From the NCBI GenBank assembly GCA_005400705.1, contig GCA_005400705.1_4079.1: a stretch of DNA of 64,000 bases. One strand, given 5' to 3'. This document shows positions 12,176 to 39,823 of the stretch, in pieces. How positions within the stretch are numbered: position 1 is the stretch's first letter; each line of letters starts with the position of its first letter. The stretch is from Escherichia coli (lineage in GTDB: Bacteria > Pseudomonadota > Gammaproteobacteria > Enterobacterales > Enterobacteriaceae). The notes under the pieces are model-generated. The model was not told the origin of the DNA. It did no database searches and saw nothing but the letters and a program-made list of their open reading frames with translations. The position numbers were made by a program, and so were the translations under genes.

Positions 12176-12263
12176 CGTGGGACAAACTGCTTTTTGGTGC
12201 TATAATAACATTGATGGTACAAGGATTGTACCTATTGGATTTAAACATGGAGAGTAAAATACA

Positions 12264-13103
12264 ATGACAAATAGACCAAAGCGTAAAAAGTATCTCAATA
12301 ATGCTGATTTACTGCGTGAAATACAAAAAAGTAAAATTTCATATTGCTGGTTATTAGACAAATCATATAGTATGTATGATTATATTGTTTTTCATGAGTC
12401 AGAAATTACTGCTGAGTTACTAGAAAAAGCTAAGGCAGCCCGAATTAAACGACTGAACAATGAAATGCTTGATAGTATTCGTGAAAAGGAAAATATGAGT
12501 GCTAAAAAAGCTAAAGAATATGCAGATGAACACAATTTAGTTATCACTGACGTTCCAATTGATGAAGTTGTTATTCGTGTTATTACAGATGAACATATTC
12601 CACCAGATACTAGAGTTAACTTTGAACCATTCAAGCATTATATTGTAGATAATGAAGGTATTCTCTATGAAGTTTGTCGTTCTCACTGGAAAGGCGACCT
12701 TGAAACTGGTGAATTCAGTACTGTTCATGGTAAAATTACAAATGAACTTGGGAAGATGTTCATTAAACTTGCAGAGGAAATCTCACACAAATCTAATTAC
12801 AGAAACTATACATACTTAGATGAAATGATGGGTGATGCAAGAATACAATTAGTTAAAAACGCACTTCTCTTTAAAGAGAGCATTCTTTATAAAAAAGATA
12901 AACCAGCAGTTCAGCTAAATCCTTTCTCTTACTATACATCATTCGTAAACAATAGTTTTCGTTCTATATTGAATAGTGAGAAAAATGTTCGAAATATACG
13001 TGATGATTTACTTGAAATGCATGGCTTTACGCCATCACATACACGTCAAATTGAAATTGAATTGAACATGATTGAAAGGAAAAATGAAGATGGCTCTGTT
13101 TGA
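12264..13103 (+). CDS. gp55: late-transcription sigma factor (gp55-like), extended C-terminus
   Basis: N-terminal KYLNNADLLREIQKSK resembles gp55 N-terminus as recalled; T4-like synteny 55-47-46; GGAGAG RBS. Confidence 0.6.
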   Translation: MTNRPKRKKYLNNADLLREIQKSKISYCWLLDKSYSMYDYIVFHESEITAELLEKAKAARIKRLNNEMLDSIREKENMSAKKAKEYADEHNLVITDVPIDEVVIRVITDEHIPPDTRVNFEPFKHYIVDNEGILYEVCRSHWKGDLETGEFSTVHGKITNELGKMFIKLAEEISHKSNYRNYTYLDEMMGDARIQLVKNALLFKESILYKKDKPAVQLNPFSYYTSFVNNSFRSILNSEKNVRNIRDDLLEMHGFTPSHTRQIEIELNMIERKNEDGSV

Positions 13104-16847: not shown

Positions 16848-17804
16848 ATGGCTAAAATTACACAACAACAATTCATAGATAAATCAATGAATATTCATGG
16901 TAGTATTTACACATACAATAAAACAATATATGTCAATGCACACCATCCAATAACTGTTACGTGTAACATTCACGGTGACTTCACAGTAGTTCCTAATAAA
17001 CACATTTCTGCAAAACAAGGTTGTCCAGTTTGTTCTGATATTGCAAAGAAAGAACGAAAGTCTAAAAAATCTCTGGGGTCATTCTTCACTGAAGCTACCG
17101 AAGTTCATGGTGATAAGTATGATTACTCAAAAGTGTTTTTTAACATTCGTTCAGAAAAGATTACTATTATATGCAAAGAAAAAGGTCATGGTGAATTTAA
17201 TCAAGTAGTTAGTAATCATCTATCTGGACAAGGTTGCCCTGAATGTGCCAAAATTCAAAATGGATTAAAGAAGAGAACTCCAGAAGATGTGTTCTTTGAA
17301 GATTGTAAGTTCATACACATGGATAATTATGATTACTCTAATACAAAATATAATGGCATGTATGAAACCATTACACCATTATGTAAGAGACATGGGGAAT
17401 TCACCGTACTAGCTACTAAGCATTATCATAGAAAACAAGGGTGTCCAGTTTGTTCAGACCAAGAACTAAAATCAAAACCTGTTATTGAAATTCAGAATTT
17501 TTTAAAAACGTGTGATATAATGTTTGAAATGGAAAAGAAATTTGATAGTTGTAAAAACATCAATCATTTACCATTTGATTTTTATATTCCTGAACTTAAT
17601 CTACTAATAGAATATGATGGTATCCAACACTTCAAACCAATAGAATACTTCGGTGGAGAAGAAGGTTTAGCTGAACAACAACGAAATGATGAAATTAAGA
17701 ATAAGTATTGTTATGATAATAATATTACTTTACTTAGAATAAAGTATTCAGATGACCACATTAAAATTATAAAAGACTTCATATCAAAAAATATAAATTA
17801 TTGA
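16848..17804 (+). CDS. homing-endonuclease-like protein: N-terminal Zn-ribbon repeats plus C-terminal Vsr/DUF559-like PD-(D/E)XK nuclease domain
   Basis: Three repeats of HGxF...H...QGCPxC module; C-terminus LPFDFYIPELNLLIEYDGIQH typical of DUF559/Vsr-like fold; track start GTG 16833 trimmed to ATG 16848 with GAGG RBS. Confidence 0.6.
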   Translation: MAKITQQQFIDKSMNIHGSIYTYNKTIYVNAHHPITVTCNIHGDFTVVPNKHISAKQGCPVCSDIAKKERKSKKSLGSFFTEATEVHGDKYDYSKVFFNIRSEKITIICKEKGHGEFNQVVSNHLSGQGCPECAKIQNGLKKRTPEDVFFEDCKFIHMDNYDYSNTKYNGMYETITPLCKRHGEFTVLATKHYHRKQGCPVCSDQELKSKPVIEIQNFLKTCDIMFEMEKKFDSCKNINHLPFDFYIPELNLLIEYDGIQHFKPIEYFGGEEGLAEQQRNDEIKNKYCYDNNITLLRIKYSDDHIKIIKDFISKNINY

Positions 17805-17931: not shown

Positions 17932-18387
17932 TGTAGTAATGACAATCCTGTTGAATGCAGAAATGCATATAAATTAGAACCTGATCCTATCGAAAATGTA
18001 GATGGCAGATGAGCAGTTCAACAGTGCGATGAGCAAAAGAAACCCGTTAGATGTGGGCATAGTTTGAACCCCTCACGGCAATGCGGCTCAATAAAGAACT
18101 CCGATAAGCATACAGAGAGTTCCTAGATAGACATATAAGGATCGCACCTTACCAGATTTGCTAAGGGAGTTTATTAAGTGATTTTAATAAACAGCCTGAA
18201 GTTTGATTGTATAGACTTTCAGGTGAGTGTCAGGATGATTAAGACTGACGACCGTTGCACATGACTGCGATAGAGAGAAACAGAGCAACCCGCTTTCGTT
18301 CTTAATATATTTTTAAGAAATTCGCAATACAATAAATGCTGAAACCATCAGCGTCAAGAAATAGAGACTTCATTGTCTCTTTTTTAT
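17932..18387 (+). ncRNA. candidate structured non-coding RNA (unknown family)
   Basis: About 455 nt between promoter and terminator with no ORF over 21 codons and no RBS; multiple hairpins incl. ATGCA-GAAA-TGCAT (GNRA loop), 9-bp GTTTATTAA/TTAATAAAC, CCTGAAG/CTTTCAGG, GTCAG/CTGAC; long-range complement GTGCGAT (18024-18030)/ATCGCAC (18141-18147). Confidence 0.3.
18363..18387 (+). terminator. rho-independent terminator closing the candidate ncRNA
   Basis: AGAGAC-ttcatt-GTCTCT hairpin followed by TTTTTT. Confidence 0.6.
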
Positions 18388-18603
18388 TGTCTTCATTCCC
18401 CTGCGGGGGGATGAAAATGTCCTCAACAAATCCCGTCAAGTATTAAATCTTTTAAAGTTCTTTATAATTAATTTAATTAAATGAATATGAGTTACGTAGT
18501 AACGAATATTCTTCAGCTAACGAATGAAATGAGTTAGATGAATCTAATAATATTAAAATTAATCCTTTCATAATTCAATTCAAATAATTCTGTAGTTTAA
18601 AAC

Positions 18604-18629
18604 CAAAAAAACCAGCAACAATGTGCTGG
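18604..18629 (-). terminator. rho-independent terminator after minus-strand late genes
   Basis: CCAGCA-acaatg-TGCTGG hairpin; plus-strand A-run = minus-strand T-run downstream of stop at 18641. Confidence 0.6.
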
Positions 18630-18640
18630 CTATATGAAAA

Positions 18641-18850
18641 TTAGTGCTTCTCGTTTTGTTTTTTAATTTTTTTATTAAAAGACTTAACTAATAAGTCTCT
18701 ATCTATTAATGGCATATTAAGGAGTGTTCCATAGTCAATGTTATCCATATATACAGAACATTCCATTAGTGCATTTTTGATTTCTGACTTATTCAGTTCT
18801 ATCTCCTTCAGTACTTCTTGTATTTCTTCAGGAGATGACTGGAGAAGCAT
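18641..18850 (-). CDS. hypothetical small late protein
   Basis: 69-aa ORF overlapping upstream gene stop by 1 nt (translational coupling). Confidence 0.45.
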   Translation of the reverse strand: MLLQSSPEEIQEVLKEIELNKSEIKNALMECSVYMDNIDYGTLLNMPLIDRDLLVKSFNKKIKKQNEKH

Positions 18851-19686
18851 TACTCGAAAAAATGACTAGGATCATATTTTAGTCCATCAATTTCCCATTG
18901 ATGATTACATCCATCACATTCTACTTCCATACTATGAGATACACCAATTTCAAGTACTTCATCCATTTTTTCACGAATTAGTTTAAGTACTCCCTTCGAT
19001 TGTTGTCCAAGCCATTCATTAATAAATTCTTTTTCAACTACTTCATCACCATCTGGTGTTATAATTTTTGCAATAACTCCACCAATCATATCGAAGTTAA
19101 GTTGAGCCATGTTTTCAAATACTTCAGAAAATATTTTTACTTTTTCATCTTTATCAATATCAGCAGTTTCAAGAAACTTAGTCTTCTGCTGCTCACTGAA
19201 CATGCGTTCAGCAAACGATGAATATTCTTTCCATGTCAGTGGTCTAAATTCTAAACGTAGTCCATTATCTAAATCAATTGATGGGATTTCTTCAAATGCT
19301 TGTGCAGTTTCAAGAAGATATGATAGATTACGTTCAAATCGACCTTCTTTTTCACATTCAGGACATACAACGTTAATATCATATGTTTCTTCTTTAGAAG
19401 CAACTTTAATAGCAATAAGAAGCATTTCAACGTCATTTACATACAACTCATCAGCGTCAATTACATTAGGAACACAGTTTTCAATAACACGGGATACTGC
19501 ATCTCCGTTTAGTAACATATCGGGGGTATTAAGTGTCATTTCATCACGTGCACTACGTGCACAAACTCCACATTTGACACCTTTTGGACCTAGAACTCCT
19601 TCTTTATAAGGAATAACGCCGTTTGTAACTAACTTAGTACTGATCTCTTCAATTTTAGTGTACTTAGCAAGTGGATTCATAGCCAT
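18850..19686 (-). CDS. hypothetical Cys-rich (putative zinc-binding) late protein
   Basis: 278 aa with CGVC, CPEC, CDGC motifs; GGAGA RBS; late-promoter element upstream. Confidence 0.55.
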   Translation of the reverse strand: MAMNPLAKYTKIEEISTKLVTNGVIPYKEGVLGPKGVKCGVCARSARDEMTLNTPDMLLNGDAVSRVIENCVPNVIDADELYVNDVEMLLIAIKVASKEETYDINVVCPECEKEGRFERNLSYLLETAQAFEEIPSIDLDNGLRLEFRPLTWKEYSSFAERMFSEQQKTKFLETADIDKDEKVKIFSEVFENMAQLNFDMIGGVIAKIITPDGDEVVEKEFINEWLGQQSKGVLKLIREKMDEVLEIGVSHSMEVECDGCNHQWEIDGLKYDPSHFFE

Positions 19687-19720
19687 TTTATTAAATCTCC
19701 ATGTAATAAATGTGTTTTAG

Positions 19721-19728
19721 TATTTATA
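19721..19728 (-). promoter_or_regulatory. T4-type late promoter TATAAATA for minus-strand gene starting at 19686
   Basis: plus tatttata in divergent intergenic region. Confidence 0.5.
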
Positions 19729-19816
19729 AGACTAAAAAAGATTAAATTAAACTAATTTTTATATTCTCTATAGTTTCATAAATATTTCTATAATACATCT
19801 ATTAAAAGGGAATGTT

Positions 19817-22021
19817 ATGGCTGGAAATACAAGTGATTACCTACTCCAGCAGTTGGTTAATCAAACTAAAGATAACAACGATAGTTTGAGTGCTATTCGT
19901 GAGTTATTGGCTGAAAATATAAAAAATGATAGAAAGAAATCCGGTTCTAAAAGTGGAAAACGTAATGGAAGTAATTCATCAAGTACTGGAAACCGTGGCT
20001 CTCGAACAAATAACAAAGCTGATGATGGTAAAGAATTTGGAAAAATATTCAAATCATTATCATCTGAAGTATCGAATGTCGGCAAAACTATGATGAGTAC
20101 GTCTGCAAACGTTAGCAATGTTGTAAACTCACTAGGAATGAGTGCATCTTCATTTGCTGGTTCATTAGCAATGATCCCAGGTCCAGTTGGTGCAGCAGCA
20201 TCTGCATTCAAATTGGTTGCTGACGCTGGTTTAGCAGTTTATAATGTGTTAAATGCACAGCTTGAAGTTTATAATAGAATAAACAGTGCTGGTGTCGCTC
20301 TATCTGAAGGTTACGGCTCCATATTAAAAGGTGCTGGTGCATCAATGATGAGTATTGATGCATTTGGTGAAGCATTACAAACTCATAGTGCCGTTGTTGC
20401 ACAATTAGATGGTGCATATGGTGATGGTGTTTCTACATTTGGTAAATTATTGGGTACTGTGCAACAAGCACAAAATCAATTAGGTTTATATGGTGTTTCT
20501 CAAAAAACATTAACTGATTTAACTGCACGTAATATTAAATTCCAAAAGCAATTTGGTGGAAGAGAAATGTTACGTAGTATGGATCAAGCAAAAAGTACTG
20601 AACAGTTTATCATGAGTATGACTAAGTTTAGTAAAAGTATGGGTGAGTCAGTTGATGCACTATTAAATAAAACACAAAACTTAGATAAATCATTAGACAC
20701 ACGTTCAATGCAAATCGCATTACAAAACTATTCTGGATTATCTAGTAAAGCAGCAGTTGCAACATCAAAAGCATTTAACGAAGCTGCTGCCAGTATGGGT
20801 GATGCTGGTGCAGATTTTCTACGTTTAATTTCACATCGTTTAACTATTGGTGGAGTACCAGATGATTTATTGACTCCAGTACTGAACCAATTTGCTGATT
20901 TAGGTGAGAACTTGGTACGTAGTGGTGTTACTGATTCACAAGAAATTCGCCGTCAACAATTGGAATTTGTTAAAAAGAACAAAGAACTAATAAAGCAAGA
21001 TTTATTAAATCAGATACAATTAGGAAACACTACGGCAGCAACCTTCAACCAACAACTACTTGATATGGAAGCTGCGATTAATGATCCTAAGAGTCAACCA
21101 GCAGATAAACTAACACAATTCACTGATAGATTCAATAGATGGATTAGTAAAGAATTTACTGAACCATTTAATAAAATGTATGCAGATACACAAAATTCTA
21201 TTGCGGATTACCTTACTGATATTGCAGACCGTACTGATGGTGCATGGGAATTCATCGGAGAGTTAGCACTTGATGGTTTTGGTTTGGTTCCTATTGCGAA
21301 AGATGCAGTTGCGTATTTGGATAGGATTGGTGGTGAGTTTGAGCAGTGGTTAGAAGGGTTAGGTACTGAAATTTTTGGTAGTGGATATAATAAAGTTTCA
21401 GAAGCATTTGATAGCTTTATGAATAACCTAATGGATCTTCCTGGTAAACTTTGGGATTCTGTTAAAGGTTGGTTTGGTGGTTCAGACGACAAAGTAAAAG
21501 TAGAAAACAATTCTGTTACCGATGGTGCAGAAAAAGTTAATAATTATTTTGAAGAAAAAATGAATTCATTTGGTGATTATATTTCTAGTTCATTTGATGG
21601 TTTTTTAAAATGGAATTCAAGTAGAAACTTTAAACAACCAAAACCCCTTGATGAATCAGTTGCTGAAAAACTTATTAGTAGTGGTCTTGAAAATAAGCCA
21701 AGAGCAACTGCGAGAATCGAAAAATCTGAACATGTTGCACCATATGTTACCATAACTCCAAAAACTTTTGATAAATCAGCATGGGGTCCAAATGAACCAC
21801 CAATTCAAGCTGAACCGGACGATTATGAGGCCATGAAAGCGATGATAAATAGTGGTAGTAGTATGGCAAATGCTAATAATAATGCCACAATATCAGAAGA
21901 CATGAAAGAGTTACTTAAAAAACTTGCTGATGTTAATGAGCAATCTCTATCTGCTGTGCAACAGACAAATAACTATCTAAGAACTATCTCTGAAAACACT
22001 CAAGGTGAGAGAAACAGTTAA
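19817..22021 (+). CDS. large hypothetical protein with N-terminal basic Gly/Ser/Asn-rich low-complexity segment; possible virion protein
   Basis: 734-aa ORF immediately upstream of portal gene; TATAAT at about 19789-19794; no catalytic motif recognised. Confidence 0.55.
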   Translation: MAGNTSDYLLQQLVNQTKDNNDSLSAIRELLAENIKNDRKKSGSKSGKRNGSNSSSTGNRGSRTNNKADDGKEFGKIFKSLSSEVSNVGKTMMSTSANVSNVVNSLGMSASSFAGSLAMIPGPVGAAASAFKLVADAGLAVYNVLNAQLEVYNRINSAGVALSEGYGSILKGAGASMMSIDAFGEALQTHSAVVAQLDGAYGDGVSTFGKLLGTVQQAQNQLGLYGVSQKTLTDLTARNIKFQKQFGGREMLRSMDQAKSTEQFIMSMTKFSKSMGESVDALLNKTQNLDKSLDTRSMQIALQNYSGLSSKAAVATSKAFNEAAASMGDAGADFLRLISHRLTIGGVPDDLLTPVLNQFADLGENLVRSGVTDSQEIRRQQLEFVKKNKELIKQDLLNQIQLGNTTAATFNQQLLDMEAAINDPKSQPADKLTQFTDRFNRWISKEFTEPFNKMYADTQNSIADYLTDIADRTDGAWEFIGELALDGFGLVPIAKDAVAYLDRIGGEFEQWLEGLGTEIFGSGYNKVSEAFDSFMNNLMDLPGKLWDSVKGWFGGSDDKVKVENNSVTDGAEKVNNYFEEKMNSFGDYISSSFDGFLKWNSSRNFKQPKPLDESVAEKLISSGLENKPRATARIEKSEHVAPYVTITPKTFDKSAWGPNEPPIQAEPDDYEAMKAMINSGSSMANANNNATISEDMKELLKKLADVNEQSLSAVQQTNNYLRTISENTQGERNS

Positions 22022-22032
22022 GGACGAAAATA

Positions 22033-23772
22033 ATGAGTTGGAAACGACATATGACAGTGGGAAGGTCTAAACTATCGACCATCCCAAATCAGTCCAGTAA
22101 TAGCAATAAATCAACAGGAACGAAAACAAATTTCGCTTCCTATCTTCCTGTTGTATATAATGGATTGGCAAACCGTACTGAGCGTTATAGTCAGTATGAG
22201 CAAATGGACCAAGATCCTGAAATTAGAACTGCATTGAATATAATTGCTGACTTTTGTACCCAAAGTACTGAAGATTTTGGTTTACCATATAAAATCAAAT
22301 ATAAAGATGATATTGGTGATACTGAAGTAACGACTATTGAAGATCGTTTAGATGCATGGACTGAACAAAATGATTTTAAAACACGAATGTATGAAATTGT
22401 GCGTGGTCTTCTGAAATATGGTGATCAATTTTTCATTCGAGATCCAGAAACATTCGATTGGTATTGGGTAAGTCCCAAAAATGTTGAGCAAGTATTTGTT
22501 AACGAAGCCACTGGTAAAACACCAGTAATTTATTATATACGTGACGTATCATTAAATTTGAAAGATAAAGTTTTTAGTAACCTTCAAGTAGGATTTGATA
22601 AAACCGCTTATCCAGGAGCTATTCCGACAACAATGGGTGGTGGTGGTTCAGTAGCTGCGGGTGGTGCATCTGGTTTTACAAGTCAAGGAAATACTGCTGA
22701 TCCATTCAGTACTAACGGTCAATTAGACGTTATTCCTGTTGGTGCAGAACACGTAATTCATCTAACGCTAAATACAGGACAAGATGGGGTATGGCCTTTT
22801 GGTACTAGTATACTTGAGGACGTATTTAAAGTCTATAAGCAAAAAGAACTTCTGGAAGATAGTATCATAATTTATCGTGTACAACGTGCACCTGAGCGTC
22901 GTGTATTTAAAATTGATGTTGGTGATATGCAAGCACACCAAGCAATGGCTTATGTTGAAAGATTTAAAAATGAAATCCACCAGCGTAGAATACCTTCAAA
23001 CAAAGGTGGAAGTACTTCATTAATGGATGCAGCATATAATCCATTAAGCATTTTAGAAGACTACTTTTTCCCACAAACTTCTGAAGGTCGTGGTTCAGAT
23101 GTTCAAACATTACCAGGCGGTGATAACTTAGGACAAATTGATGACTTACGTTATTTCAATAATAAATTGATTCGTGGTCTTCAAATACCAGCTTCTTATC
23201 TACCACAAGGTCCAGATGATGGTGGTGTTTCATTATTTGGTGATGGTGCTACACAAGCTATGGCAAGTGAATTGCGATTCAATAATCAATGTATGCGTTA
23301 TCAACGTTTAGTTGCAAAACATTTTGATGCTGAATTCAAAAGATTTATGGTTAAAAATGGATATAACATTAGTACTTCATCTTTTGAAGTTATTATGAAT
23401 CCACCTATTAACTTAGCTTCTTATCGTAAAGCTGAACTAGATGCTAAACTAATTAATACATATCTTCCTCTTAATGACTTGCCTTATATGGCGAAACAAA
23501 CAATTCTTGAAAAAATGGGCTTTTCTAAAGCTGATATTGTTAAGAATGAACAAATGTGGTTACAAGAGAATCCACAAGATGGTTCCCAACCTTCTGGTGG
23601 TGAAGAAGATTCCGCAGGATTACAGTCTGTTGGTATTGATGCTCCAAATGATCCTGGAATGGATCTTGGTATTGATGGAGAAGGTAATTTGGAAAGTGCT
23701 GATGCCGAATACCAAGAGCAACAGAGTGGAAGTGGTGGTTTCAACCCTAATAATTTAGGCAATTCTTTTTAA
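22033..23772 (+). CDS. gp20: portal protein (gp20-like)
   Basis: 579 aa; IIYRVQRAPERRVFKIDVGDM resembles recalled T4 gp20 core motif; upstream of protease/scaffold/MCP. Confidence 0.85.
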   Translation: MSWKRHMTVGRSKLSTIPNQSSNSNKSTGTKTNFASYLPVVYNGLANRTERYSQYEQMDQDPEIRTALNIIADFCTQSTEDFGLPYKIKYKDDIGDTEVTTIEDRLDAWTEQNDFKTRMYEIVRGLLKYGDQFFIRDPETFDWYWVSPKNVEQVFVNEATGKTPVIYYIRDVSLNLKDKVFSNLQVGFDKTAYPGAIPTTMGGGGSVAAGGASGFTSQGNTADPFSTNGQLDVIPVGAEHVIHLTLNTGQDGVWPFGTSILEDVFKVYKQKELLEDSIIIYRVQRAPERRVFKIDVGDMQAHQAMAYVERFKNEIHQRRIPSNKGGSTSLMDAAYNPLSILEDYFFPQTSEGRGSDVQTLPGGDNLGQIDDLRYFNNKLIRGLQIPASYLPQGPDDGGVSLFGDGATQAMASELRFNNQCMRYQRLVAKHFDAEFKRFMVKNGYNISTSSFEVIMNPPINLASYRKAELDAKLINTYLPLNDLPYMAKQTILEKMGFSKADIVKNEQMWLQENPQDGSQPSGGEEDSAGLQSVGIDAPNDPGMDLGIDGEGNLESADAEYQEQQSGSGGFNPNNLGNSF

Positions 23773-23845
23773 ACATAAATAACAGTGTATAAGAATGAGG
23801 GTTTATTTTTACCCTCATTTATAATGCATATTTCAAGGAGATCAA

Positions 23846-24073
23846 ATGTTAAAGGACATCTTTGAATCTAGCAGTGATTCAATGTACGACCCTGAAGATG
23901 ATCAGAACGTATATAAAATTACTGATTCCAGAAAACCGAAACTAACATTACAAGTATTAAACAACTTAAGAAAGTACCGTGAATTTAAAGCACATGAAGA
24001 ACAACGCCGCAAAAATGTGGTTGCAGTTGTTTATGCCGCTGCACCAACAGGTGACGGTTCTGGGTTAATGTAA
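23846..24073 (+). CDS. hypothetical small protein
   Basis: 75-aa ORF with AAGGAG RBS between portal and acidic protein genes. Confidence 0.4.
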   Translation: MLKDIFESSSDSMYDPEDDQNVYKITDSRKPKLTLQVLNNLRKYREFKAHEEQRRKNVVAVVYAAAPTGDGSGLM

Positions 24074-24174
24074 ATCAAAAATCGCACTTTTTAAAGCTTT
24101 TAAAAAAGGCGATTTTATTCAGTACTAAATAATATCATACTTTATACGAATGTAATATATCTATGGAGGATATA

Positions 24175-25011
24175 ATGGCGAATTTAAAACTACTACAAGA
24201 AGCAATTGCGGCGTTTGCAAATGGCGAACAAGATATTGCTGATAAAAAAATGCGTAAGTATTTCGTTGAGCAAGCTCAAGAAATTAACAAACAACTAGAA
24301 GAAAGCATGGAAGATGAAGATTGTGAAGTCGAAGTTAAAGTCAAAGATGAAGAAAAGCTTGACGAAGATTTTGATGTACAACCAGACGAAGGTCTAAATG
24401 CTGAAATCGAATACACCCTTGGTGAAGAAGATGAAAGTGCAGAAGAAGAAGTTGAATTCTCTGCTGATGAAGATGGTGACGGTGAAGACGATGTTGACGT
24501 TGAAGTGAAAGCTGATGCTGATGTTCCTTCCGAAGACCAATGGGAATCAATCCAAGATGCTTTCCGTGGCCTACAACAAATGTTTGATGAAATCGGTGAC
24601 GGTGAAGTTGATCTAGATTCTGAAGAAGAAGTAGAAGATAGCGAAGAAGAAGTTGGCGTTGACGGTGACGACGAATTTGCTGATGTTGAATTCGGTGATG
24701 AAAAATTCGGTGAATCCTTCAAACTAGAAAAAGTTGCTCCAGTTGATAAGAAAGAAAAAGCTGGCACTCATTCCAAATCTCCAGTAGCACCAGAAGCTAA
24801 ATCTCCAGTAGCAGGAGCAGAGCCAGTTAAATTCGCTAAGAAAACTGACCAAGCACCACTACTAGACCTAGATGATAAATCTGTTCTACCAAAAGATAGT
24901 CTAGATCTTGGTAAAAATGCTCGCGGTGAAATGAAAGATGTTAAAGCACCAAAAACTACTGCATCTAATTCTAAATCACCACTAAGCAAAGCACAACCTA
25001 AACTAAAATAA
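24175..25011 (+). CDS. highly acidic protein, possible prohead core/internal protein
   Basis: Asp/Glu-rich repeats; start set at ATG 24175 after GGAGGA; position between portal and prohead protease. Confidence 0.5.
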   Translation: MANLKLLQEAIAAFANGEQDIADKKMRKYFVEQAQEINKQLEESMEDEDCEVEVKVKDEEKLDEDFDVQPDEGLNAEIEYTLGEEDESAEEEVEFSADEDGDGEDDVDVEVKADADVPSEDQWESIQDAFRGLQQMFDEIGDGEVDLDSEEEVEDSEEEVGVDGDDEFADVEFGDEKFGESFKLEKVAPVDKKEKAGTHSKSPVAPEAKSPVAGAEPVKFAKKTDQAPLLDLDDKSVLPKDSLDLGKNARGEMKDVKAPKTTASNSKSPLSKAQPKLK

Positions 25012-25031
25012 ATATCTGAAAGGAGATCATT

Positions 25032-25655
25032 ATGAGTAGTATGATTCGTGAATGGTCTTCATTCAATGATTCTAAAGTTGTTTTGGAACATCGTGATAAT
25101 GGATTTGGTGGGCGTGACTGCTATCTTCGTGGTATTGCTATTCAAGCCGACCAACGAAATTTGAACGAGAGAATTTACCCTTTATCTGAAATTACAAGGG
25201 CAGTAAATAACATGAACCAGCGTTTAGCTAAAGGTGAAAGCATTCTTGTTGAATGTGACCATCCAGAAACACTAACTATTAACCTAGACCGAGTAGCAGC
25301 AATGATTACTAAGGTTTGGATGGAAGGTGCTAATGGTATGGCAGAAATCAAACTACTTGATACTGCACATGGTCAAAATATCCGTAAAATGCTAGAGGCT
25401 GGTGTAAAACTTGGTGTAAGTTCTCGCGGTTCCGGTAACGTTGATTATAATGGAATAGTTTCTGATTTTGAAATTATCACTATTGATATTGTTGCTCAAC
25501 CTAGTGCTCCAGAAGCATACCCAACAGCGGTATTTGAATCTCTGATGAGTAAGTACGGATCACCTTGTAATAGTTCTAAAAAAATCACTGAATCTAAAAA
25601 AGTAAATAATTTAGATTCTGAAATATACGATTTTTTCAAGAAATTAAAAGGTTAA
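25032..25655 (+). CDS. gp21: prohead core protease (gp21-like)
   Basis: 207 aa; NERIYP and GVSSRGSGN resemble recalled T4 gp21 motifs; AGGAG RBS. Confidence 0.8.
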   Translation: MSSMIREWSSFNDSKVVLEHRDNGFGGRDCYLRGIAIQADQRNLNERIYPLSEITRAVNNMNQRLAKGESILVECDHPETLTINLDRVAAMITKVWMEGANGMAEIKLLDTAHGQNIRKMLEAGVKLGVSSRGSGNVDYNGIVSDFEIITIDIVAQPSAPEAYPTAVFESLMSKYGSPCNSSKKITESKKVNNLDSEIYDFFKKLKG

Positions 25656-25721
25656 CATTTTAAAAATATAAATATCTGTATGTTGAAGTACAGATATTTC
25701 AGTACTTAAAGGAGAGAACGA

Positions 25722-26837
25722 ATGTCTAAATTAGAAAAGCTTCTAAAAGAATCATCTCTTTCTGATGAGGCAAAACAGCTAATTCAGGAAGCATGGAATG
25801 AAGAAAAGAATACACTAGCCGCAGAGATGCGTGAAGAAATGAAAGGCCGTTATCAGCAAGATTTGGCTGAACTAACCGAAGGTTTGAACACTATGGTTAC
25901 TCAAGTCATTGCTGAAGAAATGGGTGCTGTATATGAAGAGAAAAAACGTCTCGTTGAAGATCGTGTAACTCTACGTAAAACACTAAGCAATTTCTCTGCG
26001 TTTTCAAACTCTGTTTTGGCTGAAGAAGTTAAACAAATGCGTAAAGAACGTAAGCATCTTCATGAATGCATGGGTAAATTCGTTAATTTTTCTAACGGTA
26101 TCCTAGCAGAAGAGCTAAAAGAATTCCACACTGAAAAACGTCAACTAGTTGAAACTCGCGTTAAACTACTTGCTGAAGGTTCACGTCAAATTGCTGAAGC
26201 TCGTAATAACTTCATCAAACGTACATCTGAAAGTGCTGCTAAATATATTGCAGAAACCACTCAGAAGAATCTATATGCGTTGAAACAAGATCTAGTGGAA
26301 GCAAAACAAAATATGTTTGGTCGTAAAATCTTTGAAGCATTTGCTCAAGAGTTTAATGTCAAACAATTTAATGAAAACTCATTGCTACGTTCCCTAACTG
26401 AATCAATTAAATCTAAAGAAGATGAAATTGCTCAAGTTAAGCAAGAACTACATGAAACTGCTAATGCGGTTAAAGCTGCTAAAACCAAACTACGTATTAT
26501 GGAAGATGCACAAGCACGTAATGCGATTATGTCTGAACTAGTAAAACCACTAACTGCACAGCAAAAACAAATTATGGAATCTCTTCTAGCTACTTCACCT
26601 ACTGAAAAGCTTAAAGAAGATTTCAGCAAGTACCATAAGTCAGTACTTAACGGTACTAAAGTAAATGAATCTGCTACCACTCGTCAAGCAGTTCAGTCTT
26701 CCGCTAAGAAAACTCTTGCAGAAGGTAAAGTAATCACTGGCAACCGTCAGGCTATTGTTGAAAGCGAAGAAATGACCGCTGACGATATGGCATTCCTAAA
26801 AGAACTCGATGTTCTTTCAGGTATCAATAAAAAATAA
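25722..26837 (+). CDS. gp22: prohead scaffolding protein (gp22-like), coiled-coil rich
   Basis: 371 aa, heptad-rich E/K/L/A composition; TATAAATA at 25667-25674; position protease-scaffold-MCP. Confidence 0.65.
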   Translation: MSKLEKLLKESSLSDEAKQLIQEAWNEEKNTLAAEMREEMKGRYQQDLAELTEGLNTMVTQVIAEEMGAVYEEKKRLVEDRVTLRKTLSNFSAFSNSVLAEEVKQMRKERKHLHECMGKFVNFSNGILAEELKEFHTEKRQLVETRVKLLAEGSRQIAEARNNFIKRTSESAAKYIAETTQKNLYALKQDLVEAKQNMFGRKIFEAFAQEFNVKQFNENSLLRSLTESIKSKEDEIAQVKQELHETANAVKAAKTKLRIMEDAQARNAIMSELVKPLTAQQKQIMESLLATSPTEKLKEDFSKYHKSVLNGTKVNESATTRQAVQSSAKKTLAEGKVITGNRQAIVESEEMTADDMAFLKELDVLSGINKK

Positions 26838-26928
26838 ACATTTTAAAGCATTTTAATAATCAAATTTTTCAGTTCTATAAATAATATCATACTGAAAAAC
26901 GAATATAACATCTTTAAGGAGATATATA

Positions 26929-28104
26929 ATGTCACAACTACTAAATGAATCCAAATGGGTAGCAGTAAAAGAGAAACTAGTTGAAGGTCTACAGGGTACT
27001 CGTAAGTCTGTAATGGAAACTGTTCTTGATAACCATCGTAAAGTTATGCTAACTGAATCCGCAACTTCTGGTGCAACTACCGCTGGTAACATCGCTACTC
27101 TAAACAAAGTGATTCTACCAATTATGCGTCGTGTAATGCCAACCGTTATTGCTAACGAAATCATCGGTGTTCAACCTATGACTGGTCCAGTTGGTCAGAT
27201 CCACACCCTACGTGTACAATATGCTGATAACGCACCTGGTGTAATCGCTGGTGAAGAAATGCTTTCTCCATACAAAATCGCTAAATCTTACTCTGGTGAT
27301 CTAAATGCGGATAATAGCAACCCACAAGCTGCTCCTACTAGCCAACTAGAAGGTACTATGGGTCGTCGCGTTAACATCCGTATTCTACGTGAAACTGTTG
27401 AAGCGAAATCTCGTCGTCTATCTGCACGTTGGACTGTTGAATCTGCACAAGATGCTCAATCCCAACATGGTGTTGACGTTGAAGCAGAACTAATGGCTGC
27501 AATCGCTCAAGAAGTTACTGTAGAAATCGACCAAGAGCTACTAAGCCGTCTACGTGCACTACCTGGTGCTGCTGCTGTAACTTATGACCAATCTAAAGTT
27601 ACTGGTGTTGCAACCTTCGTTGGTGATGAGCACGCTGCTCTAGCTACTCTAATTAACCGTCAAGCAAACGAAGTTGCTCGTCGTACTAAGCGTGGTGCTG
27701 CAAACTGGGCTGTTGTTTCCCCAACTGCACTAACCATTCTACAATCTGCTACTACTTCTAGCTTTGCACGTACCACTGAAGGTACTTTTGAAGCACCAAC
27801 TAACGTTAAGTTTGTAGGTACTCTAAACAGCACTATGCGTATTTTCGTTGATACCTATGCTAGTGATGCAGAAGATATTCTAATTGGTTATAAAGGTAAT
27901 GCGGAAACTGATGCTGGTGTATTCTATTGCCCATACATCCCACTAATGGCTTCTGGTACTGTAATGGACCCTAACACTGGTGAACTCGTGACCACATTTT
28001 TAACACGCTATGGCTACGTTCAGCTAACCGACAGTACTTCATCTCTTGGTAACGCTGCTGACTACTACAGCAAAATCGCTATCAAAAACGTTACTTTCAT
28101 GTAA
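26929..28104 (+). CDS. gp23: major capsid protein (gp23/gp24 family)
   Basis: 391 aa; IANEIIGVQPMTGPVGQIHTLR, RETVEAKSRRLSA, DAGVFYCPYIPL resemble conserved gp23 segments as recalled; TATAAATA at 26876-26883, AAGGAG RBS. Confidence 0.85.
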   Translation: MSQLLNESKWVAVKEKLVEGLQGTRKSVMETVLDNHRKVMLTESATSGATTAGNIATLNKVILPIMRRVMPTVIANEIIGVQPMTGPVGQIHTLRVQYADNAPGVIAGEEMLSPYKIAKSYSGDLNADNSNPQAAPTSQLEGTMGRRVNIRILRETVEAKSRRLSARWTVESAQDAQSQHGVDVEAELMAAIAQEVTVEIDQELLSRLRALPGAAAVTYDQSKVTGVATFVGDEHAALATLINRQANEVARRTKRGAANWAVVSPTALTILQSATTSSFARTTEGTFEAPTNVKFVGTLNSTMRIFVDTYASDAEDILIGYKGNAETDAGVFYCPYIPLMASGTVMDPNTGELVTTFLTRYGYVQLTDSTSSLGNAADYYSKIAIKNVTFM

Positions 28105-28148
28105 TTATAAACGATTTAAAAGATTTAATCAAGAATATAAAAACAATA

Positions 28149-28176
28149 GGGACTCTTCGGAGTCCCTTTTCTTTTG
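28149..28176 (+). terminator. rho-independent terminator after major capsid gene
   Basis: GGGACTC-ttcg-GAGTCCC followed by TTTTCTTTTG. Confidence 0.7.
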
Positions 28177-28190
28177 TGTTAAAAAAATGC

Positions 28191-28219
28191 TTGACAGAAT
28201 ATTTTTAATTATATATAAT
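28191..28219 (+). promoter_or_regulatory. consensus sigma70-type promoter (TTGACA-N17-TATAAT)
   Basis: TTGACA 28191-28196, 17-nt spacer, TATAAT 28214-28219; lies inside the track ORF 28046-29341, so the real start must be downstream. Confidence 0.65.
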
Positions 28220-28252
28220 TATCAAATCGAAACCAAGTTGAGTAAATTGAAA

Positions 28253-29341
28253 ATGTTAATTGAAAATTTCAAAAAGAAAATGAATGAAAAATATGGAATG
28301 TATGGTGAGTTTGATTTTAATTCGATGATTTTTAAATCTAGCAAAACTACCTTGAAATGTAACAAATGTGGTATTGAAAATACAAAGTCTGCAATTCGTC
28401 ATATCTCATGTACTTGCTCTAACTGTTATAGTAACATGTCCCAGCGTTCCAATAATGATGATTTCATTTTAAAAGTTGAAAAGAAATTCGGGACTGAAAA
28501 ATTTAAATTTGATAAATTGGTTTATGTTAATGCAAAAACTCCAGTTACAATATTCTGCACTAAACATAATGGTTATTTTCACATAACACCAAATAAGTTA
28601 TTAACTGGTGCTGGATGTAACGTTTGTAATATTAATGTAGTGCATACGAATAATGAATTTATAAAAATTGTTAAACGTAATTATGGTGATAAATTTAGTT
28701 TCCAAAAAACCAACTATATTAACAGAACAACAAAAGTCACAGTGCATTGCAATGAAGGAAATCATGATTGGGAAGTTGATCCAAAAACATTGATACTTGG
28801 GAAGTCAGGATGTGGTATATGTTCAGGTAAAGGTGGGAGAACAACCGAGCAATTTATTGCAGAAGCTGTAAAAGTTCATAACAATAATTATGATTACTCA
28901 TCTGTTATGTATGAGCATAGTGAAAAAATGGTCGAGATAAAATGCAACAATTGTAAAAATATTTTTCATCAGCAACCTAAAGCACATTTGACAGGTCGTG
29001 GTTGTCCAAAATGCGGTAAGTATGGTTATCAGACTTCCAAGCCTGGATATTTTTATGTACAGAAACTAACTAATAAAGATAAAACCGTTTACAAATATGG
29101 AATCACTGGTGATATGAAACGTAGAGTGAACGAACAGAGTCGTGATTCTGAATTCGTCCATGAAGTACTAGTAGAACGTTTCTTCGAAGATGGTAATAAA
29201 CCCCTCTTACTGGAAAAGTTTATCAAGCAGTACATTGAAAGTGGAGTAGTAAGTACTGAAGAGTTGCCGTCAGGATTTACTGAAACGTTTGATGAAAAGT
29301 ATCTAAAATCTGTACTGGAAATTGTAAATACCTTTAAGTAA
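28253..29341 (+). CDS. homing-endonuclease-like protein: Zn-ribbon repeats plus C-terminal GIY-YIG/T5orf172-like domain
   Basis: Repeats of Cx2C...H...GCxxC module similar to 16848-17804 gene; C-terminal GYFYVQK...VYKYGITGDMKRRVNEQ; start chosen at first ATG after promoter (28253; 28280 also possible). Confidence 0.6.
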   Translation: MLIENFKKKMNEKYGMYGEFDFNSMIFKSSKTTLKCNKCGIENTKSAIRHISCTCSNCYSNMSQRSNNDDFILKVEKKFGTEKFKFDKLVYVNAKTPVTIFCTKHNGYFHITPNKLLTGAGCNVCNINVVHTNNEFIKIVKRNYGDKFSFQKTNYINRTTKVTVHCNEGNHDWEVDPKTLILGKSGCGICSGKGGRTTEQFIAEAVKVHNNNYDYSSVMYEHSEKMVEIKCNNCKNIFHQQPKAHLTGRGCPKCGKYGYQTSKPGYFYVQKLTNKDKTVYKYGITGDMKRRVNEQSRDSEFVHEVLVERFFEDGNKPLLLEKFIKQYIESGVVSTEELPSGFTETFDEKYLKSVLEIVNTFK

Positions 29342-29364
29342 ACAATCTAAAGGAGTTGACACGG

Positions 29365-29715
29365 ATGTTAACTGTATACAAATTTAAAAGAGAAGAGTAC
29401 TTAAAGAGCCAGTACTCAAATATAGAAATAAATGTTCCTTATGGTACGTTAGTTGGATACGATGAAGCCACTGAAACATTGTATTATAATGATGATAGAT
29501 TAGATTATAGTTTAGATTCTTTCATAGAAGATATACTTAATACACATACTGAAGATATGTTGTATGAAGAATACATCGATCATTATAGAGAACGTATGTC
29601 GCTGCTGCATTCTGATGCTCCTGTGCTAAACATTGCACAAGAACCCTCGGAATTTCAGCCACATAATCCTTTTCAACGTTTAATTGATATTGGTTTAAAA
29701 TTCACTATTAATTGA
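29365..29715 (+). CDS. hypothetical protein
   Basis: ATG 29365 with AGGAG 9 nt upstream (track start TTG 29356). Confidence 0.45.
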   Translation: MLTVYKFKREEYLKSQYSNIEINVPYGTLVGYDEATETLYYNDDRLDYSLDSFIEDILNTHTEDMLYEEYIDHYRERMSLLHSDAPVLNIAQEPSEFQPHNPFQRLIDIGLKFTIN

Positions 29716-29754
29716 TAGATAAATATCTCCATATTAATGATGGAGATTGAATCT

Positions 29755-30063
29755 ATGTCACAGATATGTTATGTTATAATAAACTCTGCATGGCCTGACT
29801 ATGTTAAGATTGGTTTCACTTCTAAATCTGAAATGACAGAGCGTTTGAGAACGTATCAGACAGCTACCCCGTTTCGTGATTTTGAAGTTTATCATGAAGT
29901 TCACTTTGAAGACGCACGTTTAGCTGAAAAAGAGATACATAAAAGGCTTAAACAAATGAATGCAACTAGACAACCAAACACGGAGTGGTTTAAAATGTCT
30001 AAAAAGATAGCAGCAAACATCATTGATTCTGTGTGGGATGATATGGATAACGACTTGCTATAG
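29755..30063 (+). CDS. small GIY-YIG/T5orf172-like domain protein
   Basis: N-terminal CYVIINSAWPDYVKIGFTS...RL pattern; start trimmed to ATG 29755 with GGAG RBS; ATCTCCAT/ATGGAGAT hairpin spans 29729-29751. Confidence 0.5.
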   Translation: MSQICYVIINSAWPDYVKIGFTSKSEMTERLRTYQTATPFRDFEVYHEVHFEDARLAEKEIHKRLKQMNATRQPNTEWFKMSKKIAANIIDSVWDDMDNDLL

Positions 30064-30103
30064 GAATAAATATAGTATATATTAATCATAAAGGGATTTA
30101 TAC

Positions 30104-31729
30104 ATGAGCATAAGTTTTAATAACCCATTGGATACAATGACCAGTACTGGTGCTAATGGATCTTTAGAACTAATAGTGCTTGGTGGTACACCAACTAACC
30201 CAAGACCTATTCGTTTTAATTCGTCATCAGTTATTATACCAGTACAAACTTTACCTACTGGTGAACAAGGTGCAATGGTTTTTGATCGAAGCGAATTAGT
30301 TTTGAAGTATCATAACGGTACAAGTTGGGTTGCAGTATATGATACTGATACTATTTTGGAACCAATTAGAATTTCATTAGATGAAGTAAACCGAAAATTA
30401 AATTTAAAAGTAGAAAGTGTAACATACAGTAGTAGTACTGTTCCTAGTGCAAGTATTAGTGGAACAACCTTAAACATTGTATTCCCTACTGCTTCTAGTG
30501 GTGGTTCTGGTCCAACTGGTCTTTACACTTCACTTAAACCTGGTGCTATTACACAATATTCATTGACTTCTGGACAAACTGTTGCTAGTATTCGTGAACA
30601 GATGTCTGGAGTAACTAATGGTCAAAGTGGTCGTAATGGTTCACAAGGTTCTCCGTGGAAAACTTCTGATGGTTGGTGTTTTGCTGATGGTATGTGGTGG
30701 CAATGGGAGGGGGAAAATGGTACAATCACTAAACAAGTTCCAAATCTTAACCAAGAAGCATACTTGAAAGGCATTACCACATCAGGCGTAACTAAAACTG
30801 ATAGTGTGATTGCAAGTAGTGCATCAATTAGTGGTACTGCGATATCAATTGCTCAACTTCCACCGCACTCATTTAGTTTCAGTGGAACTACTGGTGCTGC
30901 TGGTCGTCATGGTCATAGCCAAGCACTAAGAGGTATGGACAGAAGTGGTCTTAATGCGTTAACATCCAGTAACGACAACGGAATCCCAACTGTAATTAAT
31001 AACATTAACGAAGCACCTGATCACGTGCATAGTTTCAGTGGTTCAACCAATACCGTTGGTAGTGGACAAGCACATACCCACGGAATTAGCAATATTGACG
31101 TACCACACTTTAATGTGGCATACTTATATAACATTGCTGAGTCTAACGTTGCATTGAGTGAAAAAGTTGCAAACACCCGTTATGTACTTAAAACTGGTGA
31201 TGTAATGACTGGTTCATTGACTATTGCTAACAGTGCTTCTATACGTTCAAATGACACTTCATTAGTACTTTACTTCCGTAACGCTACTAATGGTGAACGT
31301 GCAGCAATTTATCATAATTCATCTAACAATACATTACGTTTGAGAAGTAATGGTGGTTCGGAAGTTACAATTAACTCTTCTGGTGTACTTTATGCCCCAT
31401 CAGTTACTGGTGCATCATTGTCTATTTCTGGAAACACTGCAACTGTTGCCAGTAAAAACATCGTAAGATCTATTAACGGTAACAACGCTGATGTAAACGG
31501 TAACGTAACTTTAACACTAGGTGCTGTACAAGATGTTCGTTTAAGTAAAAGAACAACTACGCGACATGTTCCTGATTCTTCTTGGAACTATGTACCTGAA
31601 GGTGCTACACTTGATGGGTTGTTTATTTCAGTAAATGGTAGTTCAGGTACACACGTTGAAGGTTTGAGTTGGAGATATACACAAAAACTTGTAAATGGTG
31701 TATGGACTAACGTAGTAGTGGAGTCTTAA
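30104..31729 (+). CDS. tail fibre protein with His-rich HxH metal-binding-like C-terminal region
   Basis: 541 aa; Gly/Ser/Thr-rich; HGHSQ, DHVHSF, AHTHGIS motifs as in T4 fibre tips (gp12/gp37 type). Confidence 0.65.
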   Translation: MSISFNNPLDTMTSTGANGSLELIVLGGTPTNPRPIRFNSSSVIIPVQTLPTGEQGAMVFDRSELVLKYHNGTSWVAVYDTDTILEPIRISLDEVNRKLNLKVESVTYSSSTVPSASISGTTLNIVFPTASSGGSGPTGLYTSLKPGAITQYSLTSGQTVASIREQMSGVTNGQSGRNGSQGSPWKTSDGWCFADGMWWQWEGENGTITKQVPNLNQEAYLKGITTSGVTKTDSVIASSASISGTAISIAQLPPHSFSFSGTTGAAGRHGHSQALRGMDRSGLNALTSSNDNGIPTVINNINEAPDHVHSFSGSTNTVGSGQAHTHGISNIDVPHFNVAYLYNIAESNVALSEKVANTRYVLKTGDVMTGSLTIANSASIRSNDTSLVLYFRNATNGERAAIYHNSSNNTLRLRSNGGSEVTINSSGVLYAPSVTGASLSISGNTATVASKNIVRSINGNNADVNGNVTLTLGAVQDVRLSKRTTTRHVPDSSWNYVPEGATLDGLFISVNGSSGTHVEGLSWRYTQKLVNGVWTNVVVES

Positions 31730-39062: not shown

Positions 39063-39662
39063 TTATAGTTGAACAGGAAGAGCAGCACGTACTTTAATTG
39101 CTACAGCAGTAGATGCACCTGCATCACCAACACCATCAGTACCTTGACTTACGAAAGTTTTGGTACGGAAAACTTTAGCTTGAGCGATAGACTTAGCTAG
39201 GTCAACAGTTGGATCAACTGGAGCAGGACATGCTGAACCAGGACGAACTTCTTGCTTGTTAAATACGTCTTGACGTTCACAGATGAAAGTCAATGCAACA
39301 GAATTAGCACCACCTGCTACATCAGCACCACTAGTGCCGAACGCAACTACGTTTGGATTAGCATTTTTGAAATCAGCAGGAATAACAACTTCTGAATCAA
39401 GAGCTAGTAGAGAGGTAGTAACTAGAACTGCACGTTGTTGTAGTAGTTGGGTAACCATGAATAGGTTATATTGAGCATTACTTAGAGCAGTTTGATACGC
39501 TTCAGCTTGAACATCAGAACCGTCAGAAGTAACTTTGGTAGTACCTAGTTCAACATCAGTTGGTAGATCGATTACGATGGTAACGAAACCGTTATTACCA
39601 CCCCACCATTCGCGAGCAACGCTAGACATACCATAGTTACGGTTAAAAGAATTAAGACTCAT
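39063..39662 (-). CDS. putative virion structural protein, paralogue B of tandem pair
   Basis: 199 aa; AAGGAGA RBS; TTTGATAAATAA repeats upstream on minus strand. Confidence 0.55.
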   Translation of the reverse strand: MSLNSFNRNYGMSSVAREWWGGNNGFVTIVIDLPTDVELGTTKVTSDGSDVQAEAYQTALSNAQYNLFMVTQLLQQRAVLVTTSLLALDSEVVIPADFKNANPNVVAFGTSGADVAGGANSVALTFICERQDVFNKQEVRPGSACPAPVDPTVDLAKSIAQAKVFRTKTFVSQGTDGVGDAGASTAVAIKVRAALPVQL

Positions 39663-39814: not shown

Positions 39815-39823
39815 TATCAATGA

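Follow-up and report, generated by a model that had tools for sequence, protein, structure and literature searches.

The DNA considered here is a stretch of 64,000 nucleotides (the window) from the Escherichia coli assembly GCA_005400705.1 (contig GCA_005400705.1_4079.1), which belongs to an Asteriusvirus of the Escherichia phage 121Q/PBECO4 type and is 99.4% identical to 121Q. Within it, an exact 16-mer, TAAATAATATCATACT, lies in front of two head-morphogenesis genes, at 24126–24141 ahead of the gene of an acidic virion protein and at 26878–26893 ahead of the gene of the major capsid protein (MCP). A first-pass annotation had noticed this repeat, which is indeed exact in both places, and had read it, together with a second motif shared by the protease and scaffold genes, as late promoters followed by conserved leader sequence. 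Positions are those of the window, and features lie on the plus strand unless stated otherwise.

The head module and the repeated 16-mer

The head module of 121Q is ordered as portal (gene 598), small hypothetical protein (599), virion structural protein (600, the acidic protein), T4 gp21-like protease (601), scaffold (602) and gp23-like major head protein (603), and PHROG and Pfam searches concur with this annotation (Peptidase_S77, Gp23, phrog_15696 'virion structural protein'). The acidic gene (24175–25011), which corresponds to 121Q gene 600 and matches phrog_15696, is the positional analogue of a T4 prohead-core gene, and its orthologue has been found in phAPEC6 virions (PMC7247149). It starts at the ATG at 24175, with GGAGG at 24165–24169 ahead of it, and the start at 24163 proposed by the ORF finder is wrong; the MCP gene starts at the ATG at 26929. 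Over a region of 3.2 kb, identity is 99.2–99.5% to 121Q, PBECO4, UB, phAPEC6 and about 15 other Asteriusvirus genomes, 84–90% to a second Asteriusvirus group, and about 71–73% to RaK2-like jumbo phages of Salmonella, Klebsiella, Erwinia, Pectobacterium (CBB), Cronobacter (GAP32), Yersinia, Serratia and Xanthomonas.

The 16-mer starts 49 nt (acidic) and 51 nt (MCP) ahead of the ATG and ends 33 and 35 nt ahead of it, so the distance of about 45 nt given earlier was only approximate. In the window the next-best matches have 2–3 mismatches, and in the complete 121Q genome (348.5 kb, assembled from pieces for genome-wide counts) the exact sequence occurs twice only, at these same two genes. The closest near-copy in the genome, TAAATAATATCATAGA (39778–39763, 2 mismatches), lies about 100 nt upstream of the start codon of a minus-strand virion structural gene (39063–39662), in a 218-nt spacer (39663–39880) that holds three minus-strand TAAATA boxes.

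The box as a probable T4-type late promoter

Each copy of the 16-mer begins within a box of the (T)ATAAATA type. The MCP copy overlaps TATAAATA, as had been pointed out, and this consensus box lies at 26876–26883 (P_MCP), its ATAAATA being invariant in 12 of 12 aligned relatives; the acidic-gene box (P_acidic, 24124–24131) reads ACTAAATA, an AC variant at –13/–12, where relatives have TATAAATA. T4 late promoters consist of an 8-bp TATA box that begins with a T at –13, roughly one helical turn ahead of the transcription start. In the T4-type class an AT-rich stretch directly follows the box, –35 conservation is lacking, some variants have A at –13, and the promoters of Aeromonas phage Aeh1 carry a/gC at –13/–12 (PMC2988020). 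The Asteriusvirus acidic-gene promoter resembles the Aeh1 form, but in Aeh1 this is a genome-wide consensus, whereas here it is a variant of single promoters whose orthologous site in other genera is TATAAATA.

The distribution of the box is that of a promoter element. In the window, (T)ATAAATA stands about 25–50 nt ahead of some twenty genes on both strands, mostly genes of baseplate, head, tail-fibre and other virion proteins. The 121Q genome holds 55 copies of ATAAATA on its two strands against 230–294 expected from composition, a 4–5-fold depletion; 38 of these touch non-coding DNA, which makes up 9.4% of the genome, and 34 sit 8–80 nt upstream of a same-strand start codon. By a manual tally from the annotation, about 26 of the 34 precede virion or morphogenesis genes, again on both strands. 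Genome-wide depletion combined with siting upstream of virion genes is a signature of T4-type late promoters.

A table of 58 non-redundant gene-upstream TAAATA sites shows an A+T content of 63–76% at the first four positions downstream of the box; on its upstream side no –35 element is conserved, and there is only T-richness, coming from terminator tails. The 6th nucleotide after the box is A in 23 of 34 ATAAATA sites and never C, compared with 58 of 166 among other TAAATA copies (p=5e-4), and YATA starts at the 4th to 6th nucleotide in 24 of the 58 sites against about 14–16 of 166 (p ~1e-7). The start-region signal around late boxes is thus real though modest, and the general pattern, to which the 16-mer conforms, is the box, N4 and then Y(–1)A(+1)YA. 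From this preferred A and from T4 geometry, with TATAAATA at –13 to –6, we infer starts at A24137 for P_acidic and A26889 for P_MCP, which place both copies of the 16-mer at predicted –11 to +5; the late timing and the strength of the two promoters are likewise read from sequence.

The same bases could be taken in another way, as host sigma-70 promoters with the final CATACT of the 16-mer as –10 hexamer and TAAATA as an incidental neighbour. CATACT does agree with TATAAT at 4 of 6 positions, and a TATAAT-like hexamer lies 4–5 nt past the box at many late sites. A scan, however, gave no plus-strand sigma-70-like site at either locus and no –35 match; the last base of CATACT, which corresponds to the most conserved T of a –10 element, is T, C or A among relatives, and the invariant part is TAAATA rather than the hexamer. 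A start 7 nt past the hexamer would moreover shorten the leader considerably and, at other genes, cut off the Shine–Dalgarno (SD) sequence itself. We reject this explanation as extremely improbable.

A candidate reader of the box is encoded in the window. The gene at 12264–13103, annotated in 121Q as a late sigma factor, matches phrog_12791 'sigma factor for late transcription' (E=3e-154) and phrog_234 'late sigma transcription factor' (E=8e-18), while a Pfam search of it returned no match; this gp55-type sigma is the presumed reader of the ATAAATA boxes. The system resembles the late promoters of T4 (TATAAATA at –13 to –6, with gp55, gp33 and the gp45 clamp) in having the same 8-bp box, perfect here before the MCP and scaffold genes, an A/T-rich stretch past the box, no conserved –35 element, occurrence on both strands before virion genes and a phage-encoded gp55-family sigma. 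The gene order also corresponds to that of T4 genes 20-67-68-21-22-23, with promoters directly ahead of the scaffold and capsid genes. It differs from T4 in that the invariant core is ATAAATA/TAAATA, with –13 (and –12) freer, and in the Y-A-Y-A preference of the start region, to which a conserved A-N3-CATAC is added at two genes.

The promoter class itself was already known and predicted for this clade, and the general picture of T4-type late transcription is unchanged. 'Promoter 3', predicted in silico for CBB and GAP32 at 35 sites as ATAAATA with a concentration of A/T downstream (PMC5259590), is the same motif in the same clade; besides the in-silico motifs of CBB and GAP32, the literature searched for late starts yielded only sigma-70-type motifs, for PA5oct. 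Table S7 of the CBB study lists the orthologue of the scaffold promoter (Porf_256, ATAAATATCTTTAC), and in the part of it that runs Porf_251, Porf_256, Porf_260 the orthologues of the acidic and MCP promoters are missing (PMC5259590). That paper does not describe start-region conservation, cassette duplication or the hairpin at the scaffold gene; new here are the conservation of the initiation region in the promoters of two head genes and the evidence that a promoter-leader cassette was duplicated. The late-promoter reading of the first-pass annotation is supported in kind, though imprecise in detail, as all four of its motifs hold a (T)ATAAATA box, which is depleted in the genome and concentrated upstream of virion genes, and a gp55-type sigma is encoded. 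Judged by the refuting condition given with that annotation, the outcome is mixed: the box precedes many late genes, while the 10-nt extension behind it is peculiar to two of them, where related phages keep it at both loci.

Other promoters of the window touch on this system. An extended –10-type motif, TG(T/C)GCTATAAT or GTGATATAAT, occurs at approximately 12210–12225, 39820–39835, 45125–45140, 50300–50310 and 55140–55155, before the gene of the gp55-like sigma and those of several replication proteins (exonuclease, SSB-like protein, primase), and matches promoter class 2 of CBB and GAP32, 'TGAAACG...TGnTATAAT'. The late sigma gene may therefore itself be under a middle-type promoter, as part of a middle-to-late cascade. 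Two divergent late promoters stand back to back at 54099(+)/54133(–) (54099–54139), their outward ATAAATA boxes set around a common palindrome, TATAAATTTATA, and so the leader of either one contains the other's complement; another divergent pair (19722–19784) lies in the 130-nt spacer between a baseplate-hub gene and the gene of a 734-aa virion protein.

Start region, leaders and a probable cassette duplication

By the predicted geometry, the 16-mer is made up of six nucleotides of the –10-type box, a 5-nt melted spacer and five nucleotides, ATACT, which alone would be transcribed. The 'conserved downstream leader' of the earlier reading is hence in need of refinement, as just these last five nucleotides of the 16-mer would belong to the RNA; the true leaders, predicted at 38–40 nt, are alike as well.

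Five module spacers were extracted from twelve relatives. Across genera, the conserved part is A-N3-CATAC, predicted –5 and –1 to +4, which is found behind the box at both loci in Turkey3, A4, 7t3, Hallingskeid, CBB, GAP32, XbC2, Yen9-03, XaC1 and the IMG/VR relatives with long MCP spacers; the copies are, for example, ATAAATAATGACATACC and ATAAATAAAAGCATACA in CBB and ATCACATACA and ATATCATACA in XaC1. There is free variation among relatives at the three N positions (TAT, TAA, TGA, TCA, AAG, GGA). RaK2 has YATAT in place of CATAC, and both loci of a Vibrio phage read TATAAATA[G/A]AGTTATATAAA. By lineage, the start-region copies are CATAC in the enteric phages, TTATATAAA in the Vibrio phage and GTACAA in the IMG/VR contig L033. 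Since pooled identity at 4-fold sites between the window and these phages is only 0.59–0.68, the A and CATAC positions appear to be under constraint. The promoter of the small gene upstream provides an internal control, keeping its box in relatives but not the bases downstream. In the 121Q genome only the two head genes show CATAC at this offset, where most other late promoters have TATA(A/T).

These data bear on a sceptical explanation in which the ten bases past TAAATA have no function of their own and are a neutral leftover of duplication or a chance A/T-rich repeat, ATAAATA alone being of importance. The free variation of the three bases between A and CATAC speaks for it, as does the restriction of 10/10 identity to 121Q/Turkey3-type phages, A4 being one base off. 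It has to contend with the retention of A-N3-CATAC at both loci in about 10 lineages whose 4-fold sites are only about 60% identical, with the lack of any such retention at the small-gene promoter of the same module, and with a start-region signal that is present genome-wide. Identity over all ten next bases is also rare: when the gene-upstream TAAATA sites of 121Q are compared in pairs, only 2 of 1648 pairs have it, and the other such pair is a repeated early sigma-70-type promoter near tRNA genes. We regard the absence of any function as unlikely.

The predicted leaders follow the start region directly. That of the acidic gene has 38 nt (24137–24174), with the SD sequence GGAGG already mentioned and a stretch, TGTATATCTnTTGGAGGATATAATG, that is conserved in relatives; that of the MCP gene has 40 nt, is A-rich (26889–26928) and carries AAGGAG at 26916–26921, with GAAAAnCnAA...ATCTTTTAAGGAGATnATAATG conserved across genera. 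In predicted folds compared with shuffles, the acidic leader is weakly structured (–4.6 kcal/mol, z=–0.1) and the MCP leader unstructured (–1.8 kcal/mol, z=+0.6). An action of the conserved sequence in the RNA, as a structured leader, riboswitch-like element or translational operator, could be seen in the conservation of leaders and SD regions across genera and in a weak stem (ATATC/GATAT) able to loop out the SD sequence. We consider it very improbable, with so little of the 16-mer transcribed and leaders that fold no better than shuffles. RNAalifold gave no consensus pairs on either spacer alignment, partly owing to misalignment of the upstream hairpin by MAFFT, and an Rfam scan of 23500–28400 found nothing near gathering scores (best E-value 0.22); a structured cis-regulatory leader RNA was rejected on these grounds.

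The similarity of the two loci extends well beyond the 16-mer. The acidic and MCP spacers can be aligned over their full length, with CTTTTTAAAGC-TTTTAA, TTTTTCAGT, the box, the start region, ACGAAT, ATCT and GGAG-ATATAATG as matching segments. Expressed as z of the local alignment score against dinucleotide-preserving shuffles, this similarity is 10 in the window and in A4, 5–6 in 7t3, Hallingskeid and CBB, and 2.7–4.7 in Yen9-03, RaK2, XaC1 and the Vibrio phage. Of the five remaining spacer pairs of the module, all with a late promoter and an SD sequence, four gave z of about 0 and scaffold–MCP gave 3.1. Upstream of P_acidic, between it and the small gene, lies a long A/U-rich terminator-like hairpin (24078–24116; –12.4 kcal/mol, z=–4.3) flanked by an A-run and a T-run; its stem is A/U-rich with an internal loop, and a simple consensus terminator scan does not call it. 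An equivalent is found in 9 lineages with differing stem sequences (z –3.3 to –6.0). The upstream part of the MCP spacer (26838–26875) aligns as a degenerate copy of the acidic spacer (TTTTAAAGC-TTTTAA ... TTTTTCAGT), is shared with the MCP spacer of RaK2 and forms no hairpin (0 kcal/mol). The ACGAAT hexamer, which recurs in several late leaders, was dropped as an element of its own, relatives not conserving it.

A comparison of 71 distinct head modules from IMG/VR suggests how this arrangement may have arisen. In distant, PA5oct-like relatives (about 65% MCP identity) there is a single promoter, TGTAAATA, before the homologue of the acidic gene, and the protease, scaffold and MCP spacers are just 10–30 nt long and without a box. 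On the simplest history, the module would originally have been transcribed as a single operon from the promoter of the acidic gene. A copy of the terminator/promoter/leader/SD cassette would then have been inserted before the MCP gene in an ancestor of the RaK2-like clade; this copy would have lost the hairpin and retained the box together with the start and ribosome-binding regions. The resulting paralogous cassettes would span about 90–100 nt (T-run, box, A-N3-CATAC initiation region, leader and SD sequence plus ATATAATG), with box and start region held by selection ever since. In phage A4 (84% identical), which has ATAACATACT before the MCP gene, 9 of the 10 bases after TAAATA match, so the exact 10/10 match of 121Q-type phages needs just one extra substitution. 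An ancient duplication of the cassette, which the first-pass annotation did not propose, is the most likely origin of the two spacers. Concerted evolution or gene conversion between them was rejected for the enteric clade, where an old duplication suffices, since orthologues group by locus when all spacers are scored against each other; the within-genome pairs of the Vibrio phage and of contig L033 are merely suggestive of it.

Cassettes of this kind may have multiplied elsewhere in these genomes. Outside the window, at 118241–131286 (L016 ~18200–31300) of 121Q, about a dozen paralogous RCC1-like genes form an array. A near-identical unit of terminator tail and TAAATAtagTATAATgaataaaggaggg promoter-leader precedes at least 8 of them, a further example of such cassettes multiplying, either together with genes or ahead of them.

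We are fairly confident that the 16-mers are the core and the start region of two T4-type late promoters which form paralogous cassettes, the exact copies most likely going back to a duplication. Late in infection, the host RNA polymerase core with the phage gp55-like sigma would recognise (T)ATAAATA at –13 to –6, melt the A/T-rich spacer and start at the A of a pyrimidine-A-pyrimidine-A sequence, at the two positions predicted above. The transcripts would carry 38–40-nt unstructured, A/U-rich leaders with strong SD sites, which would fit genes for very abundant head proteins.

Several points weigh against this reading. Exact 16-mer direct repeats are not rare in the window, with 10 pairs against about 1.5 in Markov-1 simulations, which also favours a repeat without function; the significance of the repeat hence comes from its context and not its length, the acidic/MCP pair being the only one of the 10 that is intergenic at equivalent positions before two genes of one module. 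Duplication and convergence under shared constraint are not fully separable, the similarity being modest in the most divergent lineages (z=2.7 in XaC1, 3.6 in RaK2). The box of the acidic gene is off consensus at –13/–12. Recognisable homologues of gp33 and gp45 are reported to be lacking in relatives including CBB (PMC5259590), so the mechanism of activation may differ from that of T4. Finally, we found no mapped late transcription starts in the literature on RaK2-, 121Q- and PA5oct-type phages.

Two further explanations grant the start region a recognised role. A-N3-CATAC (–5 to +5) might be the site of an extra phage factor or of an added domain of the gp55-like sigma, defining a special subclass of head-gene late promoters instead of serving simply as a good place to start. 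The specificity of CATAC at this offset to two head genes is in line with this, and so are the genomes whose two promoters resemble each other with other sequences, namely the Vibrio phage (AGTTATATAAA at both) and contig L033 (ACTAAATAA..GTACAA at both). At 279 aa, the sigma is also about 95 aa longer than T4 gp55, which has 185 aa. The region, however, contains no operator-like inverted or direct repeat; C(–1)A(+1) is the start context that bacterial RNA polymerase generally prefers; shared ancestry of the cassettes accounts for their resemblance without an additional factor, and the independent lineages number just three or four. Such a factor seems to us quite doubtful, a shade more so than a start region devoid of function. 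Somewhat less improbable, though still unlikely, is that A-N3-CATAC is a second, separately recognised element which marks very strong head-gene late promoters and whose copies co-evolve within each lineage beyond what shared ancestry gives; the enlarged sigma or a co-factor would then read it.

Other promoters, hairpins and putative mobile genes

The second motif of the first-pass annotation, the 11-mer ATAAATATCTG, is exact at 25008–25018 and 25668–25678, ahead of the protease and scaffold genes, and has two copies in the 121Q genome. It was rejected as an element in its own right and resolves into two further late promoters with four coincidental bases, matches over the four nucleotides after the box being no more frequent than chance (7 of 561 pairs of ATAAATA sites). 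The TCTG behind the protease promoter is kept in no relative and is lost even in the 89%-identical Turkey3; that behind the scaffold promoter is conserved as the start of the 5' arm of a hairpin.

The putative protease promoter (box AATAAATA, 25007–25014) overlaps the stop codon of the acidic gene and has its predicted start at A25020, with a 12-nt leader that begins at the SD sequence. TAAATA/ATAAATA occurs at this site only in Asteriusvirus, 7t3 and Hallingskeid, and is absent in CBB, GAP32, XbC2, Yen9-03, XaC1, the Vibrio phage and PA5oct; the sole copy of the box at the protease site of RaK2 overlaps the ATG. It is the least certain of the promoters and may be weak or lineage-specific.

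The scaffold promoter has the consensus box TATAAATA at 25667–25674, invariant in 10 relatives, and a predicted start at A25680. The hairpin noted after it is confirmed, with 25670–25681 (AAATATCTGTAT) pairing with 25688–25699 (GTACAGATATTT) in a conserved 12-bp stem (–13.2 kcal/mol, z=–3.7) that overlaps predicted –10 to +20 of the promoter. In 10 phages, 92.7% of its cells are paired, compared with 18–65% for slid controls, and all eleven one-sided changes yield G-U pairs, which fits an RNA of the sense strand; covariation in it is not significant, with 327 of 500 shuffles reaching the observed score. As the predicted start lies inside the 5' arm, only transcripts reading through from upstream could form the hairpin. 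In T4, some late promoters lie in hairpins (genes e, 49, soc and I-TevI), and late transcripts start within the stem, which frees the ribosome-binding site. The scaffold locus is similar in having the box and predicted start within the 5' arm of a conserved hairpin, but a translational switch of the e/49 type was rejected, as the 3' arm (25688–25699) stops short of the SD sequence (25708–25713) and the AUG (25722). The hairpin could be a processing site, a stabiliser of the upstream mRNA or a pause site.

The small gene (75 aa, 23846–24073) has its own ATAAATA box at 23775–23781, kept in 10 relatives. Between this box and the SD sequence lies a leader hairpin, AATGAGGGT/ACCCTCATT (23794–23819; –18.4 kcal/mol, z=–3.3), with no T-run after it. 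Relatives have a hairpin in the same place with wholly different stems (TTCACTTC/GAAGTGAA in 7t3, TTCGTTCA/TGAACGA in CBB).

After the MCP gene, a GC-rich bidirectional intrinsic terminator (28148–28177; 8-bp stem with 5 GC pairs and a T-run on both strands) would close the transcription unit of the head genes. Directly past it, a perfect sigma-70 consensus promoter (TTGACA-N17-TATAAT, 12/12; 28191–28219) stands at the start of the ORF 28187–29341, whose product is endonuclease-like with a DUF4379 treble-clef zinc finger. A DUF4379 domain, together with DUF723 and DUF2726, is also encoded by the ORF 16848–17804, where 121Q has no annotated gene and is apparently about 1 kb shorter, and the two ORFs share an exact 16-mer (17323/28884). 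They look like free-standing insertions of homing endonucleases; in PA5oct, a 'Hef-like homing endonuclease' adjoins the MCP gene on its 3' side. A further mobile gene shows a presence/absence polymorphism, as 121Q holds an HNH endonuclease gene, annotated as group I intron-associated, at 314100–314864 (L001 1397–2161) between the gp6-like and gp25-like baseplate genes, where the window has just a 101-nt spacer (5112–5212). The same late promoter, ATAAATA-TTTCTATATA, precedes whichever gene follows at this junction, with or without the HNH gene.

The transcription units of the module, all of them inferred, would be as follows. The promoter at 23775 would serve the small gene up to the hairpin at 24078–24116, P_acidic (24124) the acidic gene and the promoter at 25007 the protease gene; the hairpin-associated promoter at 25667 would drive the scaffold gene, and P_MCP (26876) the MCP gene as far as the strong bidirectional terminator at 28148–28177.

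For annotation, these predictions give concrete transcription-unit boundaries to the head-morphogenesis module in jumbo coliphages that form a widespread group, and add two strong late promoters, likewise predicted, to the motif list published for a relative, as far as the part of that list described above extends. In practical terms, the cassettes are candidate strong late-expression signals for the engineering of these phages. From an evolutionary point of view, the module would be a small example of how an operon can acquire a promoter in its interior, by placing a copy of its own promoter-leader cassette before the gene that is needed most.

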